NCBI GenBank assembly: GCA_964561455.1
Contig: CAZLPS010000001.1
Span: 48,977-112,976 of the forward strand
Direction: 5' to 3'
DNA from: an uncultured Opitutales bacterium
Lineage (GTDB): Bacteria; Verrucomicrobiota; Verrucomicrobiia; Opitutales; JABDGR01
DNA: 64,000 bases
The number at the start of each line of letters is the position of its first letter. Positions within the stretch are counted from its first letter, which is position 1. A program made the translations under genes and the position numbers. Shown here piece by piece: positions 8,211 through 37,137 of the stretch. Below the pieces are notes generated by a model. That model had not been told where the DNA came from, did not search any database, and saw only the letters and a program-made list of their open reading frames with translations.

Positions 8211-8213
8211 CCC

Positions 8214-10165: not shown

Positions 10166-10273
10166 TCCATTGAATGACGTCAGGTTAGTGTCGGTTCCAA
10201 ACCAATACAATGAAGCCATGCAGATTTTGAAAAGCAGCATTTCGACTTGATTTTAGGGGCGATTCTCCATTAC

Positions 10274-10310
10274 TTGACATTTATTCAGGAACTGGACATT
10301 ATCCTGTCCA
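10274..10310 (+). promoter_or_regulatory. yefM-yoeB promoter with autoregulatory inverted repeat
   Basis: TTGACA(10274)-17nt-CATTAT(10297); inverted repeat TGGACA-N6-TGTCCA at 10293-10310 covers the -10. Confidence 0.7.
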
Positions 10311-10311
10311 T

Positions 10312-10826: not shown

Positions 10827-10848
10827 ACGTTAGCGAACGAATTTTTTC

Positions 10849-11817: not shown

Positions 11818-11829
11818 AGTCGGTATTGA

Positions 11830-11944
11830 AACACGGAGGGCGCGGAGAGCACGGAGGAAATTTATAATCCAAGCCCATTTTATAGCTCTTGCCGCTACCC
11901 GTTCAAAATATATCTTTCTCCGTGTCCTCCGTATTCTCCGTGGT
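11830..11944. repeat. Inverted pair of 9-nt-period triplet repeats between the two gmd genes
   Basis: 11830-11856 AACACGGAG GGCGCGGAG AGCACGGAG vs reverse complement of 11918-11944 ACCACGGAG AATACGGAG GACACGGAG (20/27), 61-nt AT-rich spacer. Confidence 0.8.
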
Positions 11945-11962
11945 TAACCTCTTCTTCTCCCT

Positions 11963-12970: not shown

Positions 12971-12972
12971 CC

Positions 12973-13734: not shown

Positions 13735-14720
13735 ACAAGAAATCCACCCCTTCCGCCCGACTTTCCGCGCTGGTAACCGGGCGCAACGTCCTGGTTGCTG
13801 AGTCCAAGGCGCTGAAAATCGCCGCCGCCGGCCTCGACGAAAACTTCTCCCGTGTGGCTGCGTTGATCCGCGTGGCAACCGGCAAGGTTGTCGTCGCGGG
13901 CTTGGGCAAATCCGGCTTGGTGGCGCAATCCATCGCCGCCACCTTGTGCAGTCTCGGCACCCCGGCCGTTTTTATGCACGCGGGTGAGGCGGCGCACGGG
14001 GACATTGGAGTCGTGCAAAACGGCGACGTCGTCATTTTCGTATCCAAAAGCGGTGCCACGCCGGAATTGATTCGGCTTTGTGCCCCCGTGCGGGCGCTTG
14101 GCGCAAAATTGGTGGCCCTCACGGGCAATCTCCGTTCCCCGCTGGCCGGCGAAGCCGATGCGCTGCTGGCCGCAGTGGTGGATCGCGAAGCCGACCCCTT
14201 GGACTTGGCGCCGACCAGCAGCGCCGTGGTCGCGCTGGCCCTGGGCCACGCCCTGGCCGTCGCCCTCGCGCAGGCCCGCGGGTTTACCGAGGAGGATTTT
14301 GCGCGGACCCATCCGTCGGGCCAATTGGGCCGCAACCTTTCTCTGCGCGTGGCCGATGTCATGCATGCTTTGACGGAAATTTCCGTAATGGCACCGGGCG
14401 ACAAGATGCGCGATGTGGTGGTTGCCATGACTCGTCGGCCCCACGGCGCCGCCTGCGTGGTGGACAAACGCGGAATCCTCGCTGGCATCATCACGGACGG
14501 CGACATTCGCCGGGCCCTGCAAAAGCACGATGACATCCGCCCGATGACGGCCGCGGATGTGATGACCGCAAATCCGGTGCGCGTCACCCCGGAAACTTTG
14601 CTGGGTGACGCCCTGCGGCTGATGGAAGACCGTCCCTCCCAGATTTCAGTTTTGCCGGTGGCAGACACCGGCGGCCACTGCCTCGGCCTCTTGCGGCTGC
14701 ATGATATTTACCAGCACTAG
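13731..14720 (+). CDS. kdsD: Arabinose-5-phosphate isomerase (SIS + CBS)
   Basis: GLGKSG, EAAHGDIG, SKSG, APTSS, HPSGQLG, two CBS domains; ATGA overlap with kdsB. Confidence 0.92.
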   Translation: MNKKSTPSARLSALVTGRNVLVAESKALKIAAAGLDENFSRVAALIRVATGKVVVAGLGKSGLVAQSIAATLCSLGTPAVFMHAGEAAHGDIGVVQNGDVVIFVSKSGATPELIRLCAPVRALGAKLVALTGNLRSPLAGEADALLAAVVDREADPLDLAPTSSAVVALALGHALAVALAQARGFTEEDFARTHPSGQLGRNLSLRVADVMHALTEISVMAPGDKMRDVVVAMTRRPHGAACVVDKRGILAGIITDGDIRRALQKHDDIRPMTAADVMTANPVRVTPETLLGDALRLMEDRPSQISVLPVADTGGHCLGLLRLHDIYQH

Positions 14721-14724
14721 TTCG

Positions 14725-16290
14725 ATGCCCGCCGCGCGCGATTCAGCAGTCACACCCACTTTGCGGGGGCAATTCCCCACGCGACCGGCGGAAGTTACGC
14801 CGCCGAGTCGGCGCGAAAATATTGTCCTGGTGCTGGTGGGCGTGGCTGTGCTATTGCCACCCTGGTTGGTGGGCGCGTGGGAAAACTGGGCGCAATGGGC
14901 AACGGCAGTTTTCGCGTTGCTCGCATTTGCGGCGTTATTTGCGCCGACGTTTGATTTGCGCGGATGGCCGCCATCGCGGCCGGCGCAGGAAAATTTGCGG
15001 CGATTGGCAGGATTTCCAATTTTTTGGCTCGGTTTGGCGATCATGGCCTACGGAATGGTGGCCGCTTTGAATCCGGGGCGGGTTCTAATGGTCTCAAACG
15101 GACGGCAATGGTTGGAGGTGATTCCGCACCTGTCTTGGCTGCCCCAGAGCATCACCGCCCCCTTTTGGCCCATGAATGCCTGGCACGCCCTCCTGGTTAT
15201 TGTGCCGGCCTGGCTGGTCACGTGTGCGGCGTGGATCGGCCTCGAGACGGAGCGCGCCTGGCGCTGGCTGGTGGGGGCGGTGGCGGTCAACGGCCTGCTG
15301 CTGGCACTGTTGGGCATGGCCCAACGCTTGAGTGGAACCCATGGAATTTTCTGGATCTACAATCCACGGCCTGACTATGCGGAGGCGGTGTTTTTTGGCC
15401 CGTTCTTTTATCCGGGCCATGCTGCGGCGTGGATGGTGCTGGCATTTGGCGCGGCGGTGGCGATGCTGGATTTCCACTTGCGCCGGCGCGATCCTCTGCA
15501 ACCGCCCAGCCGGTGGGGGTGGCCGATGAAGCGGGCCTCGATCTGGCTGGCCGCGCTGGTGGCGATTATTTTTGCCCTAAGCCTGTTTGTAAAACCGGAT
15601 TTTTGGGTGTTCGCGGCGGGCGGCCTGATTATTATCGCGGCGGTTTTGTGGTTGGCGCGTTTGTGGCAGGCCGGGCAGAAGCGCCGGGCCGCCTTGTACG
15701 CCTTGCCCGCATTGGTGTTCTTGGCCGTGTTGCTCGTCGGAATCGGTGTGGCCACTTGGTGGTGGCGGCAGGGCGGGGGCGGCGCCTCGCTGGAGGTCAA
15801 TCCCCACGACCCCGGCCTGCCCGTGCGCTATGCCATTGCCCGAACTTCGGCAGCCATGATCAAAGATGAACCGGTGCTGGGTTGGGGACCAGGCAGTTTC
15901 CGTTACGTGTCCCCGTTTTATTTGCGGAAGAATCCGTTCTTCACCGACCCGGCCCATCCGGAAAATCTGCTTTACACCGCGCACTACGCATTGAGTGACT
16001 GGGTGCAAATCCCAGCCGAATGGGGTGCCGTGGGGGCCAGTTTGTTTGCCGCAATTCCCGCTTGGTGGGCGTGGCGGGCGTGGCGGCTGCGCCGGGTGCT
16101 GCCGGGTGAATCCTGGATAATTTTAGGCGCGGTTGCCCTGGTCTTTTTGGGCGCCATTGCCGATTATCCGCTCTACAATCCCGCCGTGCTGGTGGCGTTG
16201 GGCCTGTTACTCGCCGCCGCAGTTAAAGTGGGTGAATTTGCCGGGCGGCCCCGGCCAACCCTGAGTAACGTGTTTATCGCCTGCCCATGA
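14725..16290 (+). CDS. O-antigen ligase/Wzy-like membrane protein
   Basis: Many TM segments, GPFFYPGH, PVLGWGPGSF, late AH...SDWVQ...EWG motif typical of Wzy_C. Confidence 0.75.
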   Translation: MPAARDSAVTPTLRGQFPTRPAEVTPPSRRENIVLVLVGVAVLLPPWLVGAWENWAQWATAVFALLAFAALFAPTFDLRGWPPSRPAQENLRRLAGFPIFWLGLAIMAYGMVAALNPGRVLMVSNGRQWLEVIPHLSWLPQSITAPFWPMNAWHALLVIVPAWLVTCAAWIGLETERAWRWLVGAVAVNGLLLALLGMAQRLSGTHGIFWIYNPRPDYAEAVFFGPFFYPGHAAAWMVLAFGAAVAMLDFHLRRRDPLQPPSRWGWPMKRASIWLAALVAIIFALSLFVKPDFWVFAAGGLIIIAAVLWLARLWQAGQKRRAALYALPALVFLAVLLVGIGVATWWWRQGGGGASLEVNPHDPGLPVRYAIARTSAAMIKDEPVLGWGPGSFRYVSPFYLRKNPFFTDPAHPENLLYTAHYALSDWVQIPAEWGAVGASLFAAIPAWWAWRAWRLRRVLPGESWIILGAVALVFLGAIADYPLYNPAVLVALGLLLAAAVKVGEFAGRPRPTLSNVFIACP

Positions 16291-17546
16291 AAATCGCCAT
16301 TGTTGGCATGGGATATGTCGGACTGCCGCTGGCTTTGCGGTTTGTGCGCGCCGGTGCATCCGTTTTGGGTGTGGATGTGGACGCCGCCAAGTGCGCCGCG
16401 CTCAATTCCGGGCAAAGTTATATCAAGCACGTTTCTGCCGCCACGGTGGCCCAGGCGCGGGGCGCCGCCCTGCTTGAAGCCACGGCGGATTTCTCCCGAA
16501 TCCGCGAGGTCGAGGCGATTTTGCTCTGCGTCCCCACGCCACTCACGGCGCAGCGCGAGCCCGACATGACCTACGTTTTTGGCACCGGCGAAAGCGTCGC
16601 GCCGCATCTGCGCAAGGGCCAGCTCGTCGTTTTGGAATCCACCACTTATCCCGGCACCACCGATACAGACTTGCGCGCGATTTTGGAGCGCGGCTCGGGC
16701 CTCGTGGCCGGCCGCGATTTCCACCTGGCCTTTTCACCCGAACGCGAAGATCCGGGCAACGGCTTACTCGACGCCCAAAAGATTCCCAAAATCGTGGGCG
16801 GCCTGACCCCGGCCTGCCGGGACCGCGCGGTGGCTTGTTATTCCCTGGCCGTGGAGAGCATCGTTCCAGTCTCGTCGTGCCGGGTGGCGGAAGCGGCAAA
16901 ATTGCTGGAAAACATTTTCCGATCCGTGAATATCGCCCTGGTGAACGAGTTGAAAATGGTTTACACGGCCATGGGCATTGACATCTGGGAGGTCATTGCC
17001 GCAGCGAAAACGAAGCCGTTTGGTTTCATGCCCTTTTATCCGGGGCCGGGCTTGGGCGGGCATTGCATCCCCATTGACCCGTTTTATCTCACGTGGAAGG
17101 CGCGCGAATTCGGCCAGCACACCCGGTTTATCGAACTGGCGGGCGAAGTGAACTCCGCCATGCCCGCCTATGTGGTGGAACGCGCCGCCACCGTGCTGGG
17201 TCGGCCCTTGGCGGGCGCACGCATTTTGCTCCTTGGGCTGGCGTACAAGGCGGATGTGGATGACGATCGCGAATCGCCGGCATATGCGCTGATGGAGATG
17301 TTCGAGGCGCGCGGCGCCGACGTGGCGTACCACGATCCTCATGTACCGGTCATCCGCCCCACGCGGGAGCATCCGCAATTTGCCGGGCGCCAGTCCCAGT
17401 CCCTGGTCCCTACCGGGCGCGACCTGGCCGTGCTGGTGACGGCGCACCAGGAATATCGCACGTTTGATTTTTCCGCATGGCCGATTCCCTTCGTGGACAC
17501 GCGGAATTGCGCCACGCGCCGTCCGGTGCAATACTTCCAAGCCTGA
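16287..17546 (+). CDS. Nucleotide-sugar 6-dehydrogenase, WbpA/TviB-like (UDP-HexNAc)
   Basis: GMGYVGLP, CVPTP, FSPEREDPGN, KLLENIFRSVNIA, GGHCIPIDP, DDRESP. Confidence 0.88.
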   Translation: MKIAIVGMGYVGLPLALRFVRAGASVLGVDVDAAKCAALNSGQSYIKHVSAATVAQARGAALLEATADFSRIREVEAILLCVPTPLTAQREPDMTYVFGTGESVAPHLRKGQLVVLESTTYPGTTDTDLRAILERGSGLVAGRDFHLAFSPEREDPGNGLLDAQKIPKIVGGLTPACRDRAVACYSLAVESIVPVSSCRVAEAAKLLENIFRSVNIALVNELKMVYTAMGIDIWEVIAAAKTKPFGFMPFYPGPGLGGHCIPIDPFYLTWKAREFGQHTRFIELAGEVNSAMPAYVVERAATVLGRPLAGARILLLGLAYKADVDDDRESPAYALMEMFEARGADVAYHDPHVPVIRPTREHPQFAGRQSQSLVPTGRDLAVLVTAHQEYRTFDFSAWPIPFVDTRNCATRRPVQYFQA

Positions 17547-17557
17547 CCTGGATTTTT

Positions 17558-19030
17558 ATGGTGAATCAATTGCAGGCAGAGCCGACCGTCGCCACCCTCG
17601 AAAAGGGCACCGTGGGCCGGGCGGAACGCCAGGTGACGAACCTGATTTGCGTCTGGCTGGTCATTATGCCGTGGCTCGTTGGCGCACGCTTTTGGTGGGT
17701 GCAGGCGCTCACCGCCGTTATCGGATTGGCGGCCCTGGTGGTGGCGGTGCGTTCGCCCGAAGGCCGGCAAACTTTGCTCCGGTTTCCCGTATTCTGGATT
17801 GGCCTGTTGTTTGTCGGTTATGTGGCCTGCCAGGCGCTCAATCCCTGGGGCGTGGCCACCCAGCGCGTGCCGGGCATAAACGTGTGGGACGTGACCACCC
17901 GCGACCACGTCGCCTGGCTCCCGTCGGGAGTGATTGCAGTCTACGCCCAAATGGGCACCTGGCGGATGTTTACTTATTGGCTCGGGCCCTGGTTGCTGGT
18001 GTGCGCGTGGTGGGCGGCGGTCCGCCGACGGCGCAGTGGCCATCGTTTCGCGCTGATTGTCTTCATCAATGGCGTCGCCACCGCCGCCGTCGTGATTTTT
18101 GAATTCTTTCATCACCCCGCCAAGATCCTGGGCGTCTATGCCGACCCCGGTTTCGAGCCAGATATAATGGCCGGATTGACCTCGTCAGCGGGATTTGTGA
18201 ACCATAATGCGGCGGCGGCATATTTGTACTTGGCCTTGGCGGCTGGCTTGGGCGTCGCTTGCCGGCTGCAAGCCCGTGCGGCGGAGGAGGTCCGCGACAG
18301 CGGCGTGACCTGGATTCCCCTGCTGGGCTGCCTGGTCATTGTCGCGGGTTTGTTTGCCGTGGGCAGCCGGACCGGATTAGTTTTGGGCTGCGCCATTTTC
18401 TTGATCGGATTTGGTTTGATGCTGGCGTGGTCGCTGTTCGCGGTGAACCGGTCACCGGGTTTATGGGTGGGCGGCCTGATCTTGTTGGTGGCCGCCGGCG
18501 GCCTTGCCGCTTACGAATTTCACTCCGGAAATTCCGGCACACTGGAACGGTGGCGGTACCTGAATGCGCATCCGGAGGATCAGGATGTCCGCGCCATCTT
18601 GCGCCAGGAATCCTTGCACATGATGCAAGCGCATCCATGGCTGGGATGGGGCGCGGGCACCTTTCGCTACGTCTCGCCAAATTATTTCTATGCGGACCAA
18701 CGCTTCCTTAGTTCCTCTTCCATCGGCGGTTTGTCGCTGTGGACGGATTTCGCCCATTGCGACTGGCTGCAATTCCCATTGGAGTATGGTGCCATTGGCG
18801 GTGGGCTCGTGCTGGCCATGTTGATTTACGGTCTGGGCACCGCGTTGTGGCATATCCGGCGGCTGGGCCTTCCCGGGGTGATGGCCCTTCTCGGTGCCGG
18901 GGCGATGCTCGCCCATTCCGCGGTGGATTATCCCATGTTTAACGCCGCGGTCTTTGCGCTCTTTGCGCTATTGGTGACCACCACCCTGAAAACCGCAACG
19001 CTCGCGGTGCGGCGTTCCGGGCGATCGTAA
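17558..19030 (+). CDS. O-antigen ligase/Wzy-like membrane protein (second paralog)
   Basis: GFVNHN, GSRTG, PWLGWGAGTF, AHCDWLQFPLEYGAIG, HSAVDYP. Confidence 0.78.
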   Translation: MVNQLQAEPTVATLEKGTVGRAERQVTNLICVWLVIMPWLVGARFWWVQALTAVIGLAALVVAVRSPEGRQTLLRFPVFWIGLLFVGYVACQALNPWGVATQRVPGINVWDVTTRDHVAWLPSGVIAVYAQMGTWRMFTYWLGPWLLVCAWWAAVRRRRSGHRFALIVFINGVATAAVVIFEFFHHPAKILGVYADPGFEPDIMAGLTSSAGFVNHNAAAAYLYLALAAGLGVACRLQARAAEEVRDSGVTWIPLLGCLVIVAGLFAVGSRTGLVLGCAIFLIGFGLMLAWSLFAVNRSPGLWVGGLILLVAAGGLAAYEFHSGNSGTLERWRYLNAHPEDQDVRAILRQESLHMMQAHPWLGWGAGTFRYVSPNYFYADQRFLSSSSIGGLSLWTDFAHCDWLQFPLEYGAIGGGLVLAMLIYGLGTALWHIRRLGLPGVMALLGAGAMLAHSAVDYPMFNAAVFALFALLVTTTLKTATLAVRRSGRS

Positions 19031-19040
19031 TCCATCCGTC

Positions 19041-20003
19041 ATGGCTCCGGCCTTTATCATCACGCTCGACACCGAAGGCGACAACCTTTGGTCGCGACCC
19101 CGCACGGTTACCACGCGCAATGCCGCCTCGCTGCCGGCCTTTCAAGCCTTGGCCGAAAAGTTTGGCTTTCGCCCCACTTGGCTCGTGAATTGGGAAATGG
19201 CGCACGCGCCCGCCTGCCGGGAGTTCTTGCAGGATGTGCTCGCCCGCGGCACGGGCGAAGTTGGCCTGCACTTGCACGCGTGGGACACGCCGCCGCTCGA
19301 ATCCCTCACCGGCGATGATTCGCAACACCATCCGTTTCTTGGTGAGTATCCCGAGCCGCTGATGCGGGCGAAAATGGAACGCCTTGCGGGCGCGTTGGAG
19401 GATGCGTTTCAACAACCGTTGCGCAGCCACCGGGCGGGGCGGTGGGCGTTTGACGGCCGTATCGCCCGCTGGTTGCGGGAGCATGGTTTTACAGCCGACT
19501 GCTCCGTGTGTCCCGGGATTGATTGGCGTTCCACCAAGGGCGACCCCCAGGGCACGGGCGGGCCCGATTATCGCGGCGCGCCGTCTGAACCGTATTATTT
19601 GGATGAGCGCAACGTGATTAAGCCCGCCACCAGTCCGACGACCAGCGCCGTTCTCGAAGTGCCCATGACCATCGGCCAGCCCAGGGCAAACTTGACCGGG
19701 TTTGTGGTCGAAGCTTTTTCCAAACGGCACTATTGGCTTCGGCCGAATGGCCGCAACGGTGCGGCGCTGCGCGAACGGGTGGACGAAGCTGTCGCGGACG
19801 GCCGCGCGCACTTAATGGTTATGCTGCATTCGTCCGAATTGATGCCCGGTGGCAGCCCAACCTTTTCCGACGATTCCGCCATTGCGCGCCTGAACGAAGA
19901 CCTTGCGGCCTTGCTGGCCCACGCCCGCGCCCGCGGCTGCCGTGGCCGCACCCTGGGCGAATTCGCCGCCGAGTGGCGCGCCATGTCGGCCCTGGCCGTT
20001 TAA
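19041..20003 (+). CDS. Polysaccharide deacetylase, WalW-like
   Basis: ITLDTEGDNLW, GLHLHAWDTPP, HRAGRW, MLHSSELMPGGSP. Confidence 0.8.
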   Translation: MAPAFIITLDTEGDNLWSRPRTVTTRNAASLPAFQALAEKFGFRPTWLVNWEMAHAPACREFLQDVLARGTGEVGLHLHAWDTPPLESLTGDDSQHHPFLGEYPEPLMRAKMERLAGALEDAFQQPLRSHRAGRWAFDGRIARWLREHGFTADCSVCPGIDWRSTKGDPQGTGGPDYRGAPSEPYYLDERNVIKPATSPTTSAVLEVPMTIGQPRANLTGFVVEAFSKRHYWLRPNGRNGAALRERVDEAVADGRAHLMVMLHSSELMPGGSPTFSDDSAIARLNEDLAALLAHARARGCRGRTLGEFAAEWRAMSALAV

Positions 20004-21121: not shown

Positions 21122-22165
21122 ATGGCCCTTTACCTGGTTACCGGCGTTGCCGGATTCATTGCGTCGCGCGTGGCGGCGCTCTTGCTGGCTGACGGCCATG
21201 CCGTTGTCGGCCTGGATAATCTGAATGATTATTACGACGTGCGGTTAAAGGACTACCGGCTGGCGCAGTTGCTGGGCGAAACCCCCTGGCTGCCCGGCGG
21301 GGACGCCCGTCAATCGCAATTCGGCGGGCCCGGCCGACGCATCGCGGAAGACGGGCGGTTCGTCTTCGAGGCTGTGGACGTCGAAAATTTGGCCGCGTTG
21401 GATGCCCTTTTTCGTGATTTCCACTTTGATGCGGTGTTCAATCTGGCGGCGCGTGCCGGGGTGGGGTACAGCGTGGAAAATCCGCATGTGTACCTCACGA
21501 CGAACACGCATGGAACCCTGAATTTGCTGGAATGCATGCGCCGGCACGGTGTGAAAAAGCTCGTGCTGGCCTCCACTTCATCGCTTTACGCCGGTTGTGC
21601 GATGCCGTTTACGGAGGATTTGCCCGTGAATACACCGCTGTCGCCGTACGCAGCAACCAAAAAGGCGGCGGAGTTGATGGCCCACAGCTACCATCAATTG
21701 CACGGCCTCGACATTTCCGTGGTGCGTTATTTTACCGTCTTTGGCCCGGCGGGCCGGCCCGACATGAGCATCTTTCGCTTCATTCAATGGATCGAAAACG
21801 GCCAGCCGCTCCAACTCTTCGGCGATGGCCGGCAATCCCGTGATTTCACCTTCGTGGACGACGCCGCCCGTGGCACCATTCTGGCGGCAAAACCAGCCGG
21901 CTATGAAATCATCAACCTCGGTGGCGGGCGCTCTCCAACGTCGCTGGCGGAAGTCATCGCCCGCATCGAAATCGCCTTGGGCAAAAAAGCCGTTGTCCAG
22001 GGGCATCCGCCCATGGCAGCCGACATTGTGGCCACCCGGGCCGATATTTCCAAGGCCGCCAAATTGTTTGGCTGGCAGCCGCAGGTCTTGTTTGACGACG
22101 GCCTCGCCGCCACCGTCATTTGGCATCGCCGCCATGCCGCCTGGCTGGGACTGATCCCTTTGTAG
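21122..22165 (+). CDS. NAD-dependent epimerase, UDP-glucuronate 4-epimerase-like
   Basis: TGVAGFI, NLAARAGV, ASTSSLY, YAATKK, RYFTVFGPAGRPDM. Confidence 0.85.
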   Translation: MALYLVTGVAGFIASRVAALLLADGHAVVGLDNLNDYYDVRLKDYRLAQLLGETPWLPGGDARQSQFGGPGRRIAEDGRFVFEAVDVENLAALDALFRDFHFDAVFNLAARAGVGYSVENPHVYLTTNTHGTLNLLECMRRHGVKKLVLASTSSLYAGCAMPFTEDLPVNTPLSPYAATKKAAELMAHSYHQLHGLDISVVRYFTVFGPAGRPDMSIFRFIQWIENGQPLQLFGDGRQSRDFTFVDDAARGTILAAKPAGYEIINLGGGRSPTSLAEVIARIEIALGKKAVVQGHPPMAADIVATRADISKAAKLFGWQPQVLFDDGLAATVIWHRRHAAWLGLIPL

Positions 22166-22175
22166 ATAATTGAAA

Positions 22176-23228
22176 ATGCTTGCAGAAACCCAAAGGACCA
22201 AGGTGAAAGTTCTCGCCCTTATCCCCGCCCGCTCCGGCTCCAAGGGCATTCCCCATAAGAATGTGCAATGGGTTGCGGGCAAGCCGCTCCTTGCGCATTC
22301 CATTGTGCAGGCGCGCGCCAGTGCCGTCGTGGACCGGGTGATTGTCAGCACCGACAGCGAGGCCTACGCCGCCATTGCGCGGCAATACGGGGCCGAAACA
22401 CCGTTCCTGCGGCCGGCGGATATCTCCGGTGATTCCGCCACGGACTGGCAGGTTTTTCACCACGCCCTGGCCTGGTTGCGTGAACACGAAGGTCTCTGTC
22501 CGGAAATCGTGGTGCACTTGCGGCCAACCCACCCCCGGCGTGATCCCGAGGACATTACGGCTGCGGTCGAATTGCTGCTGGCCCATCCGGAGTGGGACAG
22601 CGTGCGCTCCGTTGTGTCGGCACCGCATACGCCCTATAAAATGTGGCTCAAGAATGACGATGGCACCCTGCGGCCCGTGGCCACTTGCGCCCACCCCGAG
22701 GCGTACAATGAGCCTCGCCAGGTCTTGCCGCCCACCTACCTTCAGAACGCCGCCATTGATGTCACCCGCGCCGCAACGGTTTTGGCAAAACACTCCATGA
22801 CTGGGAACAAAATCGGCGCTTTTTTAATGACGGAATTTCAGGACATTGACACGCCGGAGGAACTGGAACAGGCCGCCCGCGCCTGGCACCAGCCCGGCCG
22901 CACCCCTGCGGGCAAGACTTTTGTCTTCGATATTGATGGTGTGATTGCCCGCCTCACCCCGGACAATGACTACCGGCGCTCCGAGCCGCACGAGGAAGTC
23001 ATCGCCATCGTGCGCCAGTTGCACCGCTGCGGCAATCGCATCATTTTGTACACGGCTCGCGGATTTGTCACCGGGATTGACTGGCGGGAACTCACCTCCC
23101 GGCAATTGGCCGCTTGGAATGTTCCCTACCACGAATTGCATTTTGGCAAGCCGGCCGGGGATTTCTATGTGGATGACCGGATGGTTCCCCTCAGTGAGAT
23201 TCTCCGCATTTCCGCTGGCGACGCTTAA
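22176..23228 (+). CDS. Acylneuraminate cytidylyltransferase (NeuA-like) fused to a C-terminal HAD phosphatase
   Basis: IPARSGSKGIPHKN, STDS, FLRPADISGD, HLRPTHP, DIDT; then FVFDIDGVI, YTARG, GKPAGDFYVDDR. Confidence 0.85.
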   Translation: MLAETQRTKVKVLALIPARSGSKGIPHKNVQWVAGKPLLAHSIVQARASAVVDRVIVSTDSEAYAAIARQYGAETPFLRPADISGDSATDWQVFHHALAWLREHEGLCPEIVVHLRPTHPRRDPEDITAAVELLLAHPEWDSVRSVVSAPHTPYKMWLKNDDGTLRPVATCAHPEAYNEPRQVLPPTYLQNAAIDVTRAATVLAKHSMTGNKIGAFLMTEFQDIDTPEELEQAARAWHQPGRTPAGKTFVFDIDGVIARLTPDNDYRRSEPHEEVIAIVRQLHRCGNRIILYTARGFVTGIDWRELTSRQLAAWNVPYHELHFGKPAGDFYVDDRMVPLSEILRISAGDA

Positions 23229-23274: not shown

Positions 23275-24765
23275 ATGAATATACCAAACTCACCTCTGTT
23301 CATCTTTGAAATGGCCAACAACCATCAAGGCAGCCTTGATCATGGCCTGCGCATCATCCAGGAAATGTCGGCGATCGTGCGCCGCTACGGCATCCGCGGC
23401 GCGGTCAAGCTGCAGTATCGCGATTTGGCCTCTTTCATTCACCCCCGGCACCGGCACGGTGAGCACAAACACATTAAGCGCTTCTTGCAAACAGAGCTGA
23501 GCCGGGAGAATTACCACACGCTGGCCCAAGCCATTCGCGACCAGGGCATGATCTCCATTTGCACTCCGTTTGATGAACCCTCAGTCGAGGACCTGGTGAA
23601 CCATGGCATTGAAATTATCAAGGTTGCATCCTGCAGTGCCAACGATTGGCCACTCCTTGAGCGCATGGTGCAGGCGCAAAAGCCCATCATTTGCTCCACC
23701 GGCGGTTTGCGCATTGAGGAAATTGATCAGGTGGTCAATTTCTTTGAGCACCGGCACGTGGCGCGTCTGTCGCTTTTGCATTGTGTCGGCCGCTACCCAA
23801 CCCCCGACGACGGCATCCAGCTCAATTTCATGGAACGCATGATGCGCCGCTATCACCAGCACGAGGTGGGATACTCCGGCCATGAAGCGCCGGATAACAT
23901 TCACGTGGCTCTGTGCGCGGTGGCCAAGGGCGCCAGGATCCTTGAGCGTCATGTGGGTGTGGCCACTGAATCCATTAAGCTCAACGCCTACTCCATGAAT
24001 CCGGCGCAGACCGCCCTTTGGGTGGAAGCCGCGCTCAAGGCCCTCGTCATCGGTGGGGACCCGGCAGGCGAGAAGCATGTCACGGAAGATGAAAGTGAGT
24101 CACTGCTTTCGCTGCGCCGTGGTGCGTTTGCCGCCCAACCGGTCGCCCAGGGCGAGTTGCTGACCCGGGAGAAGGTCTTTTTTGCGATGCCCTGCCAGCC
24201 GGGTCAATCCACGGCCACTGAATGGCAGCCCACCATGGTCGCTTCCCGCGATTATGCCGTCGGCGACGCCCTGGGGGAACGCCGCAAGACCGGACTGACC
24301 AACCAGTTACGCGCCATCATCCACCAGGCCAAGGGGCTGCTGCGTGAGGCCCGCATTGAAATTGGACCGAATTTCACCATCGAAATGTCCCATCATTATG
24401 GCGCGGAAAAGTTTCGCTCCTGGGGTGCCCTGATCGTGAATCTGATCAACCGGGAGTATTGCAAAAAGTTGATCATCATGCTCCCGGCCCAGCGCCATCC
24501 CAACCATCGCCATTTAAAAAAGGAGGAAACTTTTCAATTGTTGTGGGGTGACTTGGAAGCCGTCCTCGATGGCGTGACCCACCGTTTGCTGCCGGGCGAC
24601 ATGCTGCTCATCAATCGCGGCCAATGGCACCAGTTCACCACCGTGGGTGGATGCATCTTTGAAGAGGTTTCCACCACCCACATTATCGGCGACAGTTATT
24701 ACGAAGACCCCGCCATTGCCGTTCTGGACCCCATCCGCCGCAAAACGGTGCTGGATATGTGGTAA
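23275..24765 (+). CDS. Nonulosonate synthase (NeuB family) with SAF domain and C-terminal D-lyxose-isomerase-like cupin
   Basis: FEMANNHQG, KLQY, TPFDE, KVAS, STGG, LHCVGRYPT, GYSGHE, LERH; C-terminal YCKKLIIMLPAQRHPNHRHLKKEETF...WHQF. Confidence 0.87.
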   Translation: MNIPNSPLFIFEMANNHQGSLDHGLRIIQEMSAIVRRYGIRGAVKLQYRDLASFIHPRHRHGEHKHIKRFLQTELSRENYHTLAQAIRDQGMISICTPFDEPSVEDLVNHGIEIIKVASCSANDWPLLERMVQAQKPIICSTGGLRIEEIDQVVNFFEHRHVARLSLLHCVGRYPTPDDGIQLNFMERMMRRYHQHEVGYSGHEAPDNIHVALCAVAKGARILERHVGVATESIKLNAYSMNPAQTALWVEAALKALVIGGDPAGEKHVTEDESESLLSLRRGAFAAQPVAQGELLTREKVFFAMPCQPGQSTATEWQPTMVASRDYAVGDALGERRKTGLTNQLRAIIHQAKGLLREARIEIGPNFTIEMSHHYGAEKFRSWGALIVNLINREYCKKLIIMLPAQRHPNHRHLKKEETFQLLWGDLEAVLDGVTHRLLPGDMLLINRGQWHQFTTVGGCIFEEVSTTHIIGDSYYEDPAIAVLDPIRRKTVLDMW

Positions 24766-24807
24766 CCGCCAGCGGCCCGGATTTGCGCGGCGACCGTGGA
24801 CAACCTC

Positions 24808-26103
24808 ATGAAGATCGGCATATGCATCGCGGATTACGATATCCGCAACGACTTGGCCGACTTGCTGCGCGGCCTCGCGCGGCGGCACGAGGTGGTGGTG
24901 CTGGCCACCCCGATTGAACTGCCGCGAGTCGGCGAGGGGCCCTGGGAGAAGCGTCCGGTCCGGATAAAAATCAGCTGGTGGAACCGGATGTGGCTGGCGC
25001 TATTCGGTTATTTGGGCCGGGTGCCGGCCAGCAAGGACAACTTTTTGCAAAATTCGTTTTTCCTTTTGCAAAAACTTCCGCCCGCCCGCCGGGGCCGCGC
25101 CGCGGCCTGGCTGCGGCTGCGGGCAAAATTGCCGCCGCTGTTTACGTTTGACCGGTTGTTGAAGCTCTTGCGCGGGTCCGTCGCCAGCATGGATGATCTC
25201 GACGCGATTCTCTTCATTACCAATGTCGCCAGCCCCGAGTTATTGGCGCAAGCTCTGCGGATGGGCCGCCCCTGTGCGGCGTACGTTTACAGTTGGGATC
25301 ATGCGCCGAAATTTGACCGCTTCTCCCGGCGGGTGGCCTGCTATTTCACCTGGAATCAAGGGATCGCCGACGATTTGGCCCGGTTGCAGGATATCCCCTT
25401 GTCGCACACCCGGCCTGTCGGCGCCACCCAGTTGGTTTTTATTCGCGACTACTTGAATTCTCCAGCAGCGCGCCGCCGGAAGATTCCATTCCGTTATGCC
25501 TATTACGGCTGCGCCATCGCCGTGCCGGGCCTCGTCGAGCAGGAAGTCCGTTTGGTCGAATGGCTGGCGGACGAACTGGCGCTTGAAGACCCCGGACTGA
25601 AACTCATTGTCCGCCCCTATCCCATGTTGCGTGACACGACTTCTTTTCGCCGCCTCCGCCAGCGGCCCAACGTGGTTTTCGACGATGAATACCGCGAGGA
25701 AGTGCAGGAGCGGGTGATTCCCCGCGTGGACGTGTTTTCCAAGTTCAACCTGCAGGAGCATGCTGAGTTATTCTTTCATTGCGGCACCACCATGGGACTC
25801 GAGGGCGCCTATTTCGACGCCCCGATATTCTTTCTCGCCCCTGAGGATGTGGATTTTGGCGTGCTGCCCGGCGGTGACCTGCATGTCAGCCGGTTCTTTC
25901 GCACCTTTCATAATGAAAAGTACCTGATGTTGTCCCGCTTTCCCAACGTCGTGGTGCGGGCGGCGGATTTGCGCCCGCGGATCCGCGCCGCCCTCGCCGG
26001 CCGCGAATCCTATTTGCCCTACAATCGGGCCGTGCGTGCCGAAACGCCCTTGCGATCCATGGATGAAATTGCCGGGGACATTGCCTCCGGCCTCCAGCCA
26101 TGA
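24808..26103 (+). CDS. Hypothetical GT-B-like protein, candidate nonulosonate transferase
   Basis: YSWD, LIVRPYP, GTTMGLEGAYFDAP resemble GT-B/glycerophosphotransferase-like folds; position directly after the synthase. Confidence 0.5.
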   Translation: MKIGICIADYDIRNDLADLLRGLARRHEVVVLATPIELPRVGEGPWEKRPVRIKISWWNRMWLALFGYLGRVPASKDNFLQNSFFLLQKLPPARRGRAAAWLRLRAKLPPLFTFDRLLKLLRGSVASMDDLDAILFITNVASPELLAQALRMGRPCAAYVYSWDHAPKFDRFSRRVACYFTWNQGIADDLARLQDIPLSHTRPVGATQLVFIRDYLNSPAARRRKIPFRYAYYGCAIAVPGLVEQEVRLVEWLADELALEDPGLKLIVRPYPMLRDTTSFRRLRQRPNVVFDDEYREEVQERVIPRVDVFSKFNLQEHAELFFHCGTTMGLEGAYFDAPIFFLAPEDVDFGVLPGGDLHVSRFFRTFHNEKYLMLSRFPNVVVRAADLRPRIRAALAGRESYLPYNRAVRAETPLRSMDEIAGDIASGLQP

Positions 26104-28390: not shown

Positions 28391-29536
28391 ATGGAACCCG
28401 TTCCCGCCGATCTGATCATCCATACGGACTGTGCCCATTACCGGGGTGCGGCCCCGTGCCTCTTTCACAAACGCGATGGTCGTCCCTGTCCCGGGTGTCC
28501 CGATTACGCACCCTTGGGCGCCAAAATCCTTGTCGTAAAACTTGACGCGATGGGTGATGTATTGCGCACCACGGCCATTTTGCCGGCTTTGCTCCAGCGT
28601 TTTCCGGCCGCGCAGATAACCTGGGTGACGCGCGAACGTTCCCGCGCCCTTTTGGAGGGCAATCCCCAAGTCCACCGGGTCCTCACCGTCGAGGGCAACT
28701 ATTTAGAGTCCCTCACTGCGGAGAAGTTTGATTTGGGCATCGGTCTCGACGCCGATGCGCTTTCCGCCCAGATTTTGACCTTGGCCAAATGCGGAGAAAA
28801 GTTGGGCTTCACCGTCGGCCGTTTTGGCGCGGGTGAACCCGCCAGCCCGGAGGCCAGAACCTGGTGGATGATGGGTGTCAATGACCGTCTCAAGAAAGCC
28901 AACCGGCAATCCTATCAGGCAATAATGTATGAAATATGCCGCTTGGCTGGACCAATTGCGCGCCCGCAGCTGCCCGCAAGATTATTCCGGGAGTCCTGGC
29001 TTGCCCGCCGCCGCACGGAACTGGGCCTCCAGCCCGCAAGCCGGGTCATTGGTTTGAACACCGGCGGCGGTGGCCGTTGGCAGTGCAAAAAGTGGACCGT
29101 GTCGGGTTATGTGGAACTCATTCGCTGGCTGCGCCAACGCGCGCCTGCCGCAGCTTTGCTCCTTTACGGGGGTCCCGAGGAGCTGGATTTTAACGCGGCT
29201 ATCCTCCGGCAATGCGCGTCGGACGTGCGGGATTTGGGCTGCGGGAATTCTGTCGCCGAATTCGTTTCTCTAATCAGTCTGGCCGATGTTTTTTTCACGC
29301 CGGACAGTCTTGGCTTCCATATCGCCGTCGCCATGTCCAAGCGGACGGTGGTGCTGGTGGGGCCCACTTCTCCATGGGAATTGGATGTTTATGGCTTGGG
29401 TGAAGTGCTCACTGCGGATAATTCCTGTGCTGCCTGCTACCGCAGCCAGTGCGACCGCCGGCCCACCTGCATGGAAGTGCTCGACCCCGGTATCGTGGCT
29501 GCCGCAATTATGCGCCAGTGGGATCTCATTCAGTAA
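28391..29536 (+). CDS. GT9 (heptosyltransferase-like) glycosyltransferase with Cys-rich termini
   Basis: KLDAMGDVLRTT, GLNTGGG..W..KKW, DSLGFHIA, GPT. Confidence 0.85.
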   Translation: MEPVPADLIIHTDCAHYRGAAPCLFHKRDGRPCPGCPDYAPLGAKILVVKLDAMGDVLRTTAILPALLQRFPAAQITWVTRERSRALLEGNPQVHRVLTVEGNYLESLTAEKFDLGIGLDADALSAQILTLAKCGEKLGFTVGRFGAGEPASPEARTWWMMGVNDRLKKANRQSYQAIMYEICRLAGPIARPQLPARLFRESWLARRRTELGLQPASRVIGLNTGGGGRWQCKKWTVSGYVELIRWLRQRAPAAALLLYGGPEELDFNAAILRQCASDVRDLGCGNSVAEFVSLISLADVFFTPDSLGFHIAVAMSKRTVVLVGPTSPWELDVYGLGEVLTADNSCAACYRSQCDRRPTCMEVLDPGIVAAAIMRQWDLIQ

Positions 29537-29537
29537 A

Positions 29538-31112
29538 ATGTCGCAATTGCGCTCCATCAGTCGGCTGACGAGCCTCAATATCGGCAATGCCTTTATCGGC
29601 ATGGCCAACAGCGTCGCGATGGCGTGGCTTTTCGGCACTTCGGACCGGATGCAATCCTATTTCGCGGCGGCGACCCTGCTGACCATCGTGCAGCGGGTGT
29701 TCTTTGTCGGCCAATTTTCCGAAATGTTTCTCCCTGAATACGTGCAGCGCCGCGAGGTGGACGGCCAGTTGAAGGCCGATCGCTGTTTTTCCGCGCTCTA
29801 CAATCATTTGATTCTTATGCTCATCCTGACCATGGCCGCGGCCTTTGTTGTCATGCCATGGGTCGGTGGAATTATTGCGCCCGGTTTCACCCGGGACGAA
29901 CAGCATCAGGTGGTGCGGTTGGCGCAGGCGTTGATGGTGGTGATGTTGCTGGTGGTGGCGAACGGCCATTTGCAGATCATTGGCAATGCCCGGGGCTGGT
30001 ATGGCCGGTTTGAATTCTACGGTTTGGTCGGTTCGGCAGTGGGCTTCGGCCTCTTGCTAATTACCGGAAGGACGCTGGGCATTTGGGCGCTGGTCGTTTC
30101 GCAAGGCGTGACCCAGGTGGTCTTGCTCTGGGGAAGTTGGCGGTATTTATACCGTCAGGGCTATCGGCACGCGTGGATTTGGAATGAACCCGGTTTCAGC
30201 GTTTGGCGGGTCGTGGGCCGGGTCGGTTTGACGGCGATTTATGTTCTGGCCACGCAGTTTTATGTCGTGGCTTTTAACGCCTCCCTGACCTTTCTGCCAC
30301 CGGGTACCCTGGCTGTTTACAAGTATGCGGAAAATCTCTACTCCCGGGTTGGCACCCTGTTTATGCGCCCCGTTGGTGTGGTGTTTTTTACCGATGCCGC
30401 CCTGCTTGCGCACCGCAATCCCAGCCAGTTGCGGGAACGAATGTCGAACGCTTTGTACCATTATGCCTTGATGTATCTGGGTGTGCTCGTGGTGCTTTTC
30501 CCCGCGCTGCCCAATGTGCTGGGCGTGCTTTGGGGCAGCCCGCGATACCATCTGGCGGAAATTCAGCTGACCACGGTTTTCGCCTGGTTTTTCTTCGGCA
30601 TGTTGATCGTCGAGGGTGGCGGGCTGCTCTATCGCCGTCTCAACGTGATCATGGGCGATATGCGTTTGCATTATGCCCTGATGACCGTGGTGCAGGCGGC
30701 CATGGCGGTCGTTGCCCCCATGATGGTGCGGCACTGGGGCGTGCTCGGCGCGGCTTTGGTTTTGATTGTCAATATTACCTGTCTCGCCCTTGCCGGCTTT
30801 CTCATCATCCTCTGGCGGCGCCCGCAGTATCTGGCCTTCTTTCCCGCGGCCACCTGGAAGCTTGCTGCGACGGCGCTGCCGGCTCTGGGTGTTGCGTGGC
30901 TGATGCGTCATGCGTGGCCGATTTTGAACTATCAGGGTGACTATTCCCTGATGGGGAAGTTCGGGGAATTGGCCTGCGCGGCATTGTTTGCGGGCACTGG
31001 GCTGATCACCGCAGCCGCCGTGGCCTGGATCCTGGGCGTCGAAGAAGCACGCGTGGCTTGGCACAAAATGCGCGGCTGGCGGATCACCCTCCGGGTGTCC
31101 CATCCAGTTTGA
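29538..31112 (+). CDS. MviN/MurJ-type lipid-linked oligosaccharide flippase
   Basis: About 14 TM segments; AWLFGTSDRMQSYFAA, APGF, LPPGTLAVYKYAE. Confidence 0.75.
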   Translation: MSQLRSISRLTSLNIGNAFIGMANSVAMAWLFGTSDRMQSYFAAATLLTIVQRVFFVGQFSEMFLPEYVQRREVDGQLKADRCFSALYNHLILMLILTMAAAFVVMPWVGGIIAPGFTRDEQHQVVRLAQALMVVMLLVVANGHLQIIGNARGWYGRFEFYGLVGSAVGFGLLLITGRTLGIWALVVSQGVTQVVLLWGSWRYLYRQGYRHAWIWNEPGFSVWRVVGRVGLTAIYVLATQFYVVAFNASLTFLPPGTLAVYKYAENLYSRVGTLFMRPVGVVFFTDAALLAHRNPSQLRERMSNALYHYALMYLGVLVVLFPALPNVLGVLWGSPRYHLAEIQLTTVFAWFFFGMLIVEGGGLLYRRLNVIMGDMRLHYALMTVVQAAMAVVAPMMVRHWGVLGAALVLIVNITCLALAGFLIILWRRPQYLAFFPAATWKLAATALPALGVAWLMRHAWPILNYQGDYSLMGKFGELACAALFAGTGLITAAAVAWILGVEEARVAWHKMRGWRITLRVSHPV

Positions 31113-33462: not shown

Positions 33463-34803
33463 ATGTCCCTCTTCCCAGGTAGTTCAAGTTCCACCCGGCA
33501 CAGCAAGACTGACCGTTGGATTGTCAATTACATGACGATGGCGGCCGGGCTTTTTGCTTTTTCCTATTTGGTCGCTTATGTTTGGAACTCCGACAATGGC
33601 ACGCGCGGCGCCACCGCCACCCTCGCTTTGCTGGCCGGCGTGAAGGCCATTATGTCGCCGACGGCCCATGGGGTGTTGCGGGGTCGGGCGATGGTGTTTC
33701 TCTCCCTGATGTTTTGCGTCGCCTTGTTAAATATCGTCGTATCCGCCGACTTGGTGCAGACCTCTTTGCGCTGGCTGCTTTGGTTCGGGATGGTGATCTG
33801 CTTTTCCCGGATCGTCGGCGCCAGCGACGGCAGTTGGATGGATGCCCTGCCCCAGCGCTTGCCGTTTCTGTTCACCGTAATTTATGTGACCATTATCGTC
33901 GAAGCCCGGTTTAATGCCAATCCCACCAATGTGGCTTTCGCCTATCACCTTTCCGGGTTGTACGGCAATTTAATTCTCGCCTGCGGGCTATTCGCCGCCA
34001 AATTTTGGCAGCGAAGCGTTTGGGTGATCGTCGGCTTGGTCGCCATTTTCGGCTCCGGTGCCGGTGGGGCCTTGTTTACGATCCCCATTATGTTTGTGCC
34101 CTACATTCTTTATAGCGCCAGCAGCATGCCGGTGAAGGGTATCGCCGTCGCTGGCCTCCTCATGGCGGGCGCCACTTTCTTCCTGGAATCGCAATTGTTC
34201 AGCCAGTTTCTCAACATTAAGCTTAATGTTTCGGCAACCAATAGCTACTCCGGCCTCGAACGGCTGGAGCGATCAAAGGAAATGCGATTGCAGTTGGTGC
34301 AGTACGGATTGGCCTTGGCGCAAAAAAATCCCCTCGGCACCGGGTTGGGCCACACCTACAGTGATTCCATTTCGCATGACATGGGTGTGTCCCACGTCCA
34401 CAATGGCACTGTCACCATGCTGATTGAATTGGGCTTTCCCGGTTTCGCCGTCGCCATTTCCATGCTTTTGTGGATTTTTTGGACCATTCTGCGCAGCCGT
34501 TTGATTAAGAACCAGGTCAAGGGTTTCTATTTCACCTATTTCTTCACCATCTTTGGCCGGTCACTGTCCGAAAATTACACTCCGTTTGACCTCGGTAATT
34601 ATTTCAATTTCGTCTTCTTGATCATGACCGCGTACTTTTTCCTCTATGATCGTTCGGCCCGGTTTACTCCGGGCTCAAGCCCGCGTCCCGCGGTCCCTCC
34701 AGGCAGGATGGGGCCGCCCCGCCCGGGTAATTTCCCGCCGCGTCCGTGGCCCCCGCCGGGCGTCCGCCCGCCGCCGCGCCGGCCCATGGCCTTCCCTGGG
34801 TGA
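33463..34803 (+). CDS. O-antigen polymerase (Wzy)/ligase-like membrane protein with Pro/Arg-rich tail
   Basis: Multi-TM; NPLGTGLG, HVHNG...LIELG. Confidence 0.72.
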   Translation: MSLFPGSSSSTRHSKTDRWIVNYMTMAAGLFAFSYLVAYVWNSDNGTRGATATLALLAGVKAIMSPTAHGVLRGRAMVFLSLMFCVALLNIVVSADLVQTSLRWLLWFGMVICFSRIVGASDGSWMDALPQRLPFLFTVIYVTIIVEARFNANPTNVAFAYHLSGLYGNLILACGLFAAKFWQRSVWVIVGLVAIFGSGAGGALFTIPIMFVPYILYSASSMPVKGIAVAGLLMAGATFFLESQLFSQFLNIKLNVSATNSYSGLERLERSKEMRLQLVQYGLALAQKNPLGTGLGHTYSDSISHDMGVSHVHNGTVTMLIELGFPGFAVAISMLLWIFWTILRSRLIKNQVKGFYFTYFFTIFGRSLSENYTPFDLGNYFNFVFLIMTAYFFLYDRSARFTPGSSPRPAVPPGRMGPPRPGNFPPRPWPPPGVRPPPRRPMAFPG

Positions 34804-37129: not shown

Positions 37130-37137
37130 TTAAACCC

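Follow-up and report, generated by a model that had tools for sequence, protein, structure and literature searches.

A two-gene biosynthetic cassette was analysed in a 64,000-nucleotide stretch of DNA from an uncultured Opitutales bacterium (contig CAZLPS010000001.1), hereafter the window, whose first letter is position 1 of all coordinates given below. The central gene (23275-24765) encodes a NeuB-type synthase fused, through a SAF-like domain, to a cupin of the D-lyxose/D-mannose isomerase family, and the gene immediately before it encodes a cytidylyltransferase fused to a phosphatase of the haloacid dehalogenase (HAD) type. Together, NeuB-cupin and NeuA-HAD form a conserved, self-contained cassette that is common rather than specific to the window. 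With a probability that we put at roughly 55%, this two-gene, four-domain cassette makes a cytidine monophosphate (CMP)-activated, non-aminated 3-deoxy-nonulosonic acid, most probably Kdn (3-deoxy-D-glycero-D-galacto-nonulosonic acid), from a central ketose phosphate.

Domain make-up of the two fusion proteins

The gene at 23275-24765 lies on the forward strand, starts with an ATG at 23275, ends with a stop codon at 24765 and encodes a protein of 496 amino acids (aa). An alternative, longer open reading frame (ORF), starting from a TTG at 22945, runs into the upstream gene; because homologues of 495-499 aa align with the 496-aa protein from its first residue, position 23275 is taken to be the true start. 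From the N- to the C-terminus, the protein consists of a NeuB-type TIM barrel (23287-24039, approximately residues 5-255), predicted to carry out a phosphoenolpyruvate (PEP)-dependent aldol-type condensation, a SAF/antifreeze-like domain (24082-24279, approximately residues 270-335), and a helix followed by a cupin of the D-lyxose/D-mannose isomerase family (24292-24762, approximately residues 340-496), all on the forward strand. Pfam reports NeuB (PF03102, 2e-44), Cupin_2 (8e-8) and Lyx_isomer (1.6e-5) on this sequence. An AlphaFold2 (AF2) model of the whole fusion, built with 66 homologues as input, is confident throughout (pLDDT 93.1, pTM 0.82), and a Foldseek search with this model assigns the first 330-340 residues, including the SAF domain, to 3G8R, NmNeuB and PseI, and the last 160-180 residues to D-lyxose isomerases. 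No SAF domain is called by Pfam on this sequence; its presence is supported by the alignment with NmNeuB, by a TIGR03569 match that extends through residue 331, by the AF2 model, and by Foldseek alignments of 331-340 columns with 3G8R and NmNeuB, and PF08666 (SAF) had been annotated beforehand on many homologues of the fusion. The first-pass annotation, made from the letters of the sequence, had described the protein as NeuB and SAF domains followed by a lyxose/mannose isomerase-like cupin, and Pfam, phmmer, AF2 and Foldseek agree on these calls. The motifs it quoted are likewise all present, namely FEMANNH (residues 11-17), GYSGHE (residues 199-204) and YCKKLIIMLPAQRHPNHRHLKKEETF..WH.F, the last of these reading YCKKLIIMLPAQRHPNHRHLKKEETF...GQWHQF over residues 395-454.

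The N-terminal part is a member of the NeuB superfamily, with a PF03102 score of 152 bits against a cut-off of 22.1 and Foldseek E-values of 1e-27 to 1e-24 for the fusion against 1XUU and 8H2C. When Protein Data Bank (PDB) entries are ranked by similarity to the NeuB domain, 3G8R comes first (5e-88), followed by NeuB, PseI and SpsE. The equivalog models for NeuB (TIGR03569, 153.2 bits against a cut-off of 399.65) and for PseI (TIGR03586, 120.2 bits against 340.25) score far below their thresholds, so that the protein is a superfamily member that is orthologous to neither enzyme; NCBIfam holds no dedicated model for the NeuB-cupin family. With NmNeuB (1XUZ), PseI and LegI it shares the TIM barrel, the SAF domain and conserved PEP and metal ligands, and it differs from them in its extra C-terminal isomerase domain and in having no NeuC, PseG or LegG partner. 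The equivalents of the PEP and metal ligands of NmNeuB are all invariant in the family alignment: E25 corresponds to E12 of the fusion, K53/Q55 to K45/Q47, K129 to K116, S132 to S119, S154 to S141, Y186 to Y174, S213/H215 to S201/H203, and E234/H236 to E224/H226.

Four other positions are changed relative to NmNeuB (E134 to S121, N184 to G172, D247 to N237, and R314 to M305), which bears out the first-pass view that the active site is a variant one. A large phylogenetic survey called E25, E134 and E234 potentially catalytic and named R314 as the one conserved residue in the SAF domain with a catalytic role (PMC8208679); PDB entries 4IPI and 4IPJ are the R314A and R314K mutants. In the alignment of the SAF domains, WVKRP of NmNeuB stands against FFAMP of the fusion, which places Met305 at the Arg314 site. 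The combination of Arg314 and Glu134 that marks NeuB proper is missing here and across the fusion family as well. Within this family, members of clade A (55-89% identical to the fusion) have Met305 conserved to at least 90%, and members of a sister clade B (41-47% identical) have Phe at this position. The NeuB domain is thus predicted from its residues to keep the condensation machinery without those specific for N-acetylmannosamine (ManNAc), and since E134, N184, D247 and R314 are all changed, the aldose would be bound differently than in N-acetylneuraminic acid (Neu5Ac) synthase.

The cupin matches Lyx_isomer (PF07385) over a short aligned stretch, with a whole-protein score of 24.6 bits against a cut-off of 20.8. 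In a phmmer search with residues 335-496 alone, the closest sugar isomerases were TsLI from Thermofilum (7NZO, 2e-5) and YdaE from Bacillus subtilis (2Y0O, 5e-4), and the alignment covers the barrel in both its halves. Modelled on its own (pLDDT 91.8), the cupin has only D-lyxose isomerases among its ten best PDB fold matches (TMq 0.63-0.75) and superposes on YdaE with a root-mean-square deviation of 1.8 Å over 163 columns; other sugar-isomerase cupins rank after these. Members of this family catalyse the interconversion of D-mannose and D-fructose (PMC8378251, PMC10165151). In TsLI, Mn and mannose/fructose are bound by K62, H75, H77, K86, E88, H143, E156 and D163, and altering the equivalents of K86, E156 or D163 is reported to abolish activity (PMC8378251). 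After correction for the 24-residue tag offset of the PDB chain, seven of these eight residues map to positions that are invariant in 66 to approximately 236 homologues (K398, H411, H413, K416, E418, H452 and E464, in the order given), while D163 probably corresponds to the invariant D473, at a point where the alignment is uncertain. On the strength of these residues, the cupin looks catalytically intact as a predicted isomerase.

The cupin shares with YdaE (2Y0O), TsLI (7NZO-7NZQ) and Escherichia coli Z5688 (3KMH) the fold, the N-terminal helix, the HxH...E...H Mn site and the catalytic Lys and Glu, and it differs from them in being only 22-25% identical, in being fused rather than a free homodimer, and perhaps in acting on a phosphorylated substrate. 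At approximately 157 aa it is also shorter than the free-standing D-lyxose isomerases (171-225 aa), as a result of loop deletions. Further residues are invariant in the cupin (K397, H408, E417, R448, H469, R489 and K490), for which counterparts in D-lyxose isomerases are not known. A reading of the conserved basic residues as a phosphate site was considered and rejected, given that clade B proteins, which have no HAD partner, possess them too. This type of cupin is narrowly distributed: among 1.84 billion cluster representatives there are 714 matches at E <=1e-3 and 323 at E <=1e-10, most of which form the C-terminus of proteins of approximately 500 aa.

The upstream gene (22170-23228, forward strand), separated from the NeuB-cupin gene by 46 bp, encodes a CMP-nonulosonate synthetase (approximately residues 15-237) followed by a small, capless HAD domain (approximately residues 249-346). 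The synthetase part matches PF02348 (4e-20, 72.9 bits against a cut-off of 22.6). Its PDB matches are NeuA structures at 1e-30 to 1e-23 and KdsB at 1e-7, and the PseF model scores 129 bits, below its equivalog cut-off of 206. These matches mark it as a predicted cytidylyltransferase of the NeuA type and not of the KdsB type. Its CTP-binding P-loop (P19-A-R-x-G-S-K) and K30/N31 are conserved, and mostly invariant, in 65 fusions. The HAD part, of approximately 100 residues, matches the 'capsule biosynthesis phosphatase' model TIGR01689 (EcbF/BcbF) at 2.7e-9, with a score of 37 bits that does not reach the curated cut-off of 162 and makes it a relative of that family; its nearest PDB structures are 1XPJ and 9IQW. 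HAD motifs I-IV (D254xD256, T295, K327 and D335D336) are conserved in the 65 fusions, which implies a phosphorylated intermediate.

Distribution of the cassette and a divergent sister clade

The first-pass annotation expected this architecture to occur in other genomes, and homologues of the fusion are counted in thousands, with 7478 in the protein database at E <1e-10; the best 120 of these are all NeuB plus cupin proteins of approximately 496 aa. Genome context was compared in the best 80 of 275 relatives from a scan of one genome per GTDB species, and all locus counts below refer to this set. These 80 loci cover Verrucomicrobiota, Planctomycetota, Chloroflexota, Bacteroidota, Firmicutes, Acidobacteriota, Gemmatimonadota, the Alpha-, Beta-, Gamma- and Deltaproteobacteria, a bacterium of the candidate phyla radiation (CPR) and a Woesearchaeote, the closest relatives being Opitutae (64-69%). 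Cultured carriers include Rhodocyclus tenuis, Xanthocytophaga agilis/flavus, Rhodocytophaga aerolata, Nitrosomonas halophila Nm1, Panacagrimonas perspica DSM 26377, Rosistilla oblonga and Anaerosacchariphilus polymeriproducens. In a check for co-occurrence of NeuB-cupin with NeuA-HAD across genomes, as had been suggested, 63 of the 80 loci had the cytidylyltransferase-HAD gene immediately upstream of NeuB-cupin. It is found elsewhere in the locus in 3/80, and contig ends cut the locus in 4/80, such that the HAD domain is kept in at least 66 of approximately 76 informative loci.

The genes expected for an amino-sugar precursor do not accompany the pair. Among the 51 loci of 15 kb or more, 47 have flanks in which no gene for a UDP-N-acetylglucosamine (UDP-GlcNAc) 2-epimerase (WecB/NeuC), a DegT aminotransferase or a PglF/PseB-like protein was found, and neither ManC nor KdsB occurs as a neighbour of the cassette in any of the 80 loci. 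For example, in Xanthocytophaga there is no other sugar-precursor gene beside the pair, and a single gene for a family 2 glycosyltransferase (GT2) lies approximately 4 kb away; in Rosistilla the pair also stands without an adjoining sugar-precursor gene, and the locus includes a polysialyltransferase-family gene. The commonest neighbour is a PF05159 gene (KpsC/KpsS-like, approximately 500 aa), which follows the cassette, often immediately downstream, in 14/80 loci (L008, L009, L012, L014, L017, L022, L026, L065, L074, L078 and others). The PF05159 and polysialyltransferase families are annotated as users of CMP-activated ulosonic acids. Such neighbours fit a CMP-ulosonic acid as the donor, and PF05159 proteins are candidate Kdn transferases. 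These comparisons establish what the four domains are, that their catalytic residues are conserved, that the two genes are linked and that the pair occurs independently of amino-sugar genes. The idea of a self-contained unit of four activities on two proteins, put forward in the first-pass annotation, gains from the recurrence of the cassette across phyla, from the lack of amino-sugar linkage and from residue conservation in all four domains. No description of the NeuB-cupin fusion, or of the 3G8R fusion, was found in the searchable literature, which omits most subscription journals, and databases name the family only as 'N-acetylneuraminate synthase family protein' or 'SpsE/cupin'.

Clade B has a different setting. 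Its members include proteins of Chromobacterium and Azoarcus KH32C and a second paralogue in Rhodocyclus, and three loci with a conserved gene cluster were compared (L088, C. violaceum, 6846-18234; L089, Azoarcus sp. KH32C, 6751-19966; L090, Rhodocyclus tenuis, 3778-15030). The gene order is nucleoside triphosphate (NTP)-transferase, 4,6-dehydratase, DegT (435-469 aa), NeuB-cupin, thiamine pyrophosphate (TPP) enzyme, C-methyltransferase, NUDIX, radical S-adenosylmethionine (SAM) protein and short-chain dehydrogenase/reductase (SDR), a context that is absent from all 80 loci nearest to the window fusion. In Azoarcus, the cluster adjoins flagellin genes. The proteins carry the changes G202T (giving STH for SGH), H411Q (the first metal His) and M305F, and keep the other conserved cupin residues. 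The cluster may build a branched or higher-carbon sugar.

The closest solved structure to the window fusion, 3G8R ('probable spore coat polysaccharide biosynthesis protein E'; TM-score 0.93 on target length), comes from this clade. It shares the FIFEMANNH motif with the window fusion, and differs in that the construct is without the cupin, has the clade B residues, and derives from the nucleoside diphosphate (NDP)-sugar/TPP-enzyme/radical-SAM context without NeuA-HAD. It comprises residues 1-350 of the 495-aa C. violaceum NeuB-SAF-cupin fusion, and the view of 3G8R as a cupin-less relative is rejected, its parent protein being of full length and carrying the cupin. The placement of 3G8R as a truncated member of clade B, in a CDP-sugar/TPP-enzyme/radical-SAM context, is new here.

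The polysaccharide locus around the cassette

The cassette is embedded in a large polysaccharide locus. A Gmd gene (11963-12970) adjoins KdsB, the CMP-Kdo (3-deoxy-D-manno-octulosonate) synthetase (approximately 12985-13734, forward strand), which is followed by the arabinose-5-phosphate isomerase KpsF/KdsD (13725-14720, forward strand). The locus therefore has its own supply of CMP-Kdo, from which it follows that the cassette serves a second acidic sugar, and the polymer or polymers may bear both Kdo and a second ulosonic acid. Kdo itself is rejected as the product of the cassette on the same grounds, together with the NeuA type of the cytidylyltransferase. Nucleotide-sugar dehydrogenases, and then ManC and an SDR, come before the cassette in locus order. 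The SDR, an epimerase/dehydratase at 21122-22165 (forward strand; PF01370, 9e-57), stays below all NCBIfam equivalog cut-offs. A homologue of it lies directly upstream of the cassette in approximately 5 of the 80 loci (L008, L009, L015, L065 and L078), plus L001. It is an accessory gene and not a conserved part of the cassette, and its product could act on the nonulosonate or on some nucleotide sugar unrelated to it.

Immediately after the cassette comes a 435-aa ORF (24796-26103, forward strand) of no known family, for which Pfam, NCBIfam and the PDB gave no match. Comparison with a PF05159 neighbour by hhalign gave a probability of 0.9%. The cassette is likewise followed directly by a homologue of this ORF in L001 and L002, the closest relatives, in two Opitutae (L010/L011), and in L030 of Spirosoma, and the proteins share the invariant motif H328-x-G-x-T-x-G-x-E336; the ORF product is, speculatively, a candidate transferase for the activated sugar. 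Beyond it follow GT4, GT9 and GT2 glycosyltransferases. Three Wzy_C/O-antigen-ligase-like membrane proteins (14701-16290, 17477-19030 and 33463-34803, all forward strand) and a MurJ-like flippase (29286-31112) suggest that more than one polymer or repeat unit is made.

The only PF02350 protein in the window (35969-37129) scores 439 bits with the model for non-hydrolysing WecB and 53 bits with that for NeuC, and is followed by WecC (WecB and WecC together span 35969-38391). It is therefore WecB, and the window has no hydrolysing NeuC, just as the first-pass annotation had stated. That account had also found no complete gene set for pseudaminic (Pse) or legionaminic (Leg) acid in the module, which proved correct: the DegT, PglF-like and PglD-like genes lie outside it, 20-28 kb downstream of the cassette. 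These are a PglD-like acetyltransferase (45195-45953), a DegT aminotransferase (50399-51529) and a PglF-like membrane 4,6-dehydratase (51556-53496), which together with a FabH-like ketoacyl synthase III (46199-47281; all four on the forward strand) look like a bacillosamine-type pathway, possibly with an N-acylated product. A heparinase II/III-like protein (38382-40322, forward strand) is encoded just past WecB/WecC, inside the biosynthetic locus. Farther downstream, two tandem paralogous sensor kinases (55994-57913 and 58141-60048, forward strand) combine an N-terminal NMT1/THI5-like periplasmic binding domain with HisKA and HATPase domains.

A possible route to CMP-Kdn and its alternatives

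We infer the substrate, its phosphorylation state, the order of the steps and the product as follows. The cupin, as a trimmed metal enzyme of the D-lyxose/D-mannose isomerase type, would convert fructose 6-phosphate (Fru-6-P) into mannose 6-phosphate (Man-6-P); the NeuB-type barrel, capped by the SAF domain, would condense Man-6-P with PEP to Kdn-9-phosphate (Kdn-9-P); the HAD domain of the upstream protein would strip the 9-phosphate to give Kdn; and the cytidylyltransferase domain of the same protein would activate Kdn to CMP-Kdn, which transferases encoded in the polysaccharide locus around the cassette would then use. So arranged, neighbouring reactions fall on the same protein, the first two on one fusion and the last two on the other. 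The four-step scheme, already put forward in the first-pass annotation, is the most economical one because the cassette is conserved, amino-sugar genes are absent nearby, Arg314 and Glu134 are replaced, and the window combines the lack of a hydrolysing NeuC with a separate KdsB/KpsF pair for Kdo.

There is precedent for the last three steps, in that Man-6-P is converted through Kdn-9-P and Kdn to CMP-Kdn in Bacteroides thetaiotaomicron and Prymnesium parvum (PMC6200933). Like the systems of B. thetaiotaomicron (BT1713-BT1715) and P. parvum (EC 2.5.1.132), the window cassette would combine a PEP-using synthase of the NeuB family with a HAD phosphatase and a cytidylyltransferase of the NeuA type, without amino-sugar genes. 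It differs from them in the pairwise fusion of the activities, in the added isomerase domain, in keeping the SAF domain missing from the P. parvum synthase, and in a HAD of the TIGR01689/1XPJ type. Two features of the NeuB domain give weaker hints towards the Kdn-9-P route. The S-G-H metal motif is common to the fusion (GYSGHE) and the P. parvum Kdn-9-P synthase (GFSGHH), whereas enzymes using free sugars have S-D-H, and a basic-rich loop after strand 2 (residues 48-75) lines up with a loop of the P. parvum enzyme; according to PMC8208679, the alpha2-beta2 loop of the human enzyme favours the substrate in its phosphorylated form. A protein search with the P. parvum synthase returned algal homologues only. 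Another comparable case is that of Serratia marcescens KL1/KL2, in which capsular Kdn needs a neuA and neuB pair and NeuB has an extra sugar-phosphate-isomerase/epimerase domain (PMC9000132). The two systems are alike in being two-gene neuA and neuB units, that of Serratia heading the capsule locus, with an additional isomerase domain on NeuB, and in Serratia the production of Kdn depends genetically on neuB; the extra domain there is reported as COG1082 (a xylose-isomerase-like TIM barrel) and not a cupin.

Several observations weigh against the proposed route. The most important complication is clade B, whose NDP-/CDP-sugar clusters contain no NeuA-HAD; the NeuB-cupin unit is evidently adaptable, and its occurrence in a nucleotide-sugar context means that it is not intrinsically tied to central-metabolite substrates. 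The known D-lyxose isomerases work on unphosphorylated sugars (PMC8378251). The NeuB domain is not closer to a Kdn-9-P synthase than to other NeuB proteins, with 25% identity and 59 bits against the P. parvum enzyme, the one such synthase compared, and 87 and 76 bits against the NeuB proteins of Leptospira and Neisseria, respectively. Likewise, the HAD domain matches no KdsC-type family in NCBIfam, and the upstream SDR, here preceded by ManC, could alter the sugar. Finally, NeuA lacks the HAD domain in three of the 80 loci (L013, L029 and L072); in three others the sole NeuA is a distant one, approximately 5 kb away, again with no HAD; and four loci of the Runella group (Spirosomataceae; L045, L048, L067 and L071) show neither NeuA nor HAD within 8 kb. 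The first and the last of these groups could serve as natural tests of the need for the phosphatase.

Some of these points lead to other readings of the cassette. If a phosphatase, whether the fused HAD or another one, acted first, the cupin would work on fructose and the NeuB domain would condense mannose with PEP. This free-sugar route to Kdn agrees with the unphosphorylated substrates of all characterised D-lyxose isomerases, whose sugar-binding residues are kept here, with the use of free sugars by bacterial NeuB, PseI and LegI (PMC6200933), and with the missing HAD of some cassettes. We regard it as distinctly unlikely, since it would have the HAD-NeuA fusion couple the first and last steps, which are not neighbours, and a phosphatase acting on Fru-6-P or Man-6-P would drain central metabolism; the HAD is, in addition, retained in most informative loci, and both characterised Kdn routes pass through Kdn-9-P (PMC6200933). 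The sugar itself could also be a different one, with another ketose phosphate (xylulose-5-phosphate or sedoheptulose-7-phosphate) as the starting point, or a later epimerisation, leading to an undescribed 8- or 10-carbon ulosonic acid or an epimer of Kdn. The isomerase family has D-lyxose/D-xylulose, a pair of pentoses, as its type substrate, the sequence itself does not set the chain length, an SDR lies directly upstream in the window and in 5/80 loci, and clade B indicates that the fusion can serve unusual sugars; rare higher-carbon ulosonic acids have, moreover, been reported from bacterial mass-spectrometry surveys (PMC8157484; bioRxiv 10.64898/2026.04.20.719630). We nevertheless consider a different sugar unlikely, as the cytidylyltransferase is closest to the nine-carbon enzymes NeuA and PseF, the SDR is not a conserved partner, and Kdn is the only non-aminated nonulosonic acid known to be common in bacteria (PMC9000132, PMC8157484).

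Much less credit is given to readings that change the class of the product or the role of the cupin. An N-acylated nonulosonate (Neu5Ac, Leg or Pse) could be made from a hexosamine derivative supplied by distant genes, with the cupin replacing NeuC or LegG in the inversion at C2, and the PglF-, DegT- and PglD-like genes in the window (45-53 kb), the similarity annotation 'N-acetylneuraminate synthase family' and the best NCBIfam matches to NeuB and PseI all point that way. Such a product is rejected as very improbable: the bit scores fall far short of the equivalog thresholds (153 for a NeuB cut-off of 400, 120 for a PseI cut-off of 340), Arg314, conserved in SAF-bearing NeuB, is Met or Phe, there is no hydrolysing epimerase, 47 of the 51 long loci are without a nearby amino-sugar gene, and a HAD phosphatase has no part in those pathways. 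It is similarly hard to credit that the cupin has no catalytic role and serves a NeuB-like synthase as a domain for oligomerisation or for regulation through sugar binding. Cupins are often ligand-binding or dimerisation modules and this one is shorter than free-standing D-lyxose isomerases, but its 3-His/1-Glu metal site and essential Lys and Glu are invariant in approximately 119 clade A sequences, a level of conservation expected for catalysis.

A broader possibility, to which we give somewhat less than an even chance, is that environmental bacteria make Kdn-type (non-aminated) nonulosonic acids mainly by way of this hitherto unrecognised cassette, and that its cupin would be the first in the D-lyxose isomerase family to act on a sugar phosphate, which it would pass directly to a fused synthase. 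In a bolder version, Kdn would give way to a ulosonic acid not yet described, with 8 or 10 carbons or in epimeric form, and clade B, the parent clade of 3G8R, would make a branched sugar of higher carbon number for surface glycans or flagellin. Relative to what is known of nonulosonate and Kdn biosynthesis, the new elements of the proposed CMP-Kdn route would be the built-in isomerase and the phosphatase-fused activating enzyme. In mass-spectrometry surveys, Kdn/Neu-type acids are about as frequent in prokaryotes as Pse/Leg types (PMC8157484), and from genome annotation it is not possible to say which NeuB homologues produce them. If CMP-Kdn is indeed made from Fru-6-P and PEP by this cassette, the two genes would provide a marker predicting Kdn-bearing surface polymers in many phyla and would correct a widespread mis-annotation as 'N-acetylneuraminate synthase', while offering a compact enzymatic route to CMP-Kdn for glycoengineering. 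The orphan structure 3G8R would gain a functional context, and the D-lyxose isomerase family would be extended to substrates of a new class and to a fused architecture that possibly channels them.

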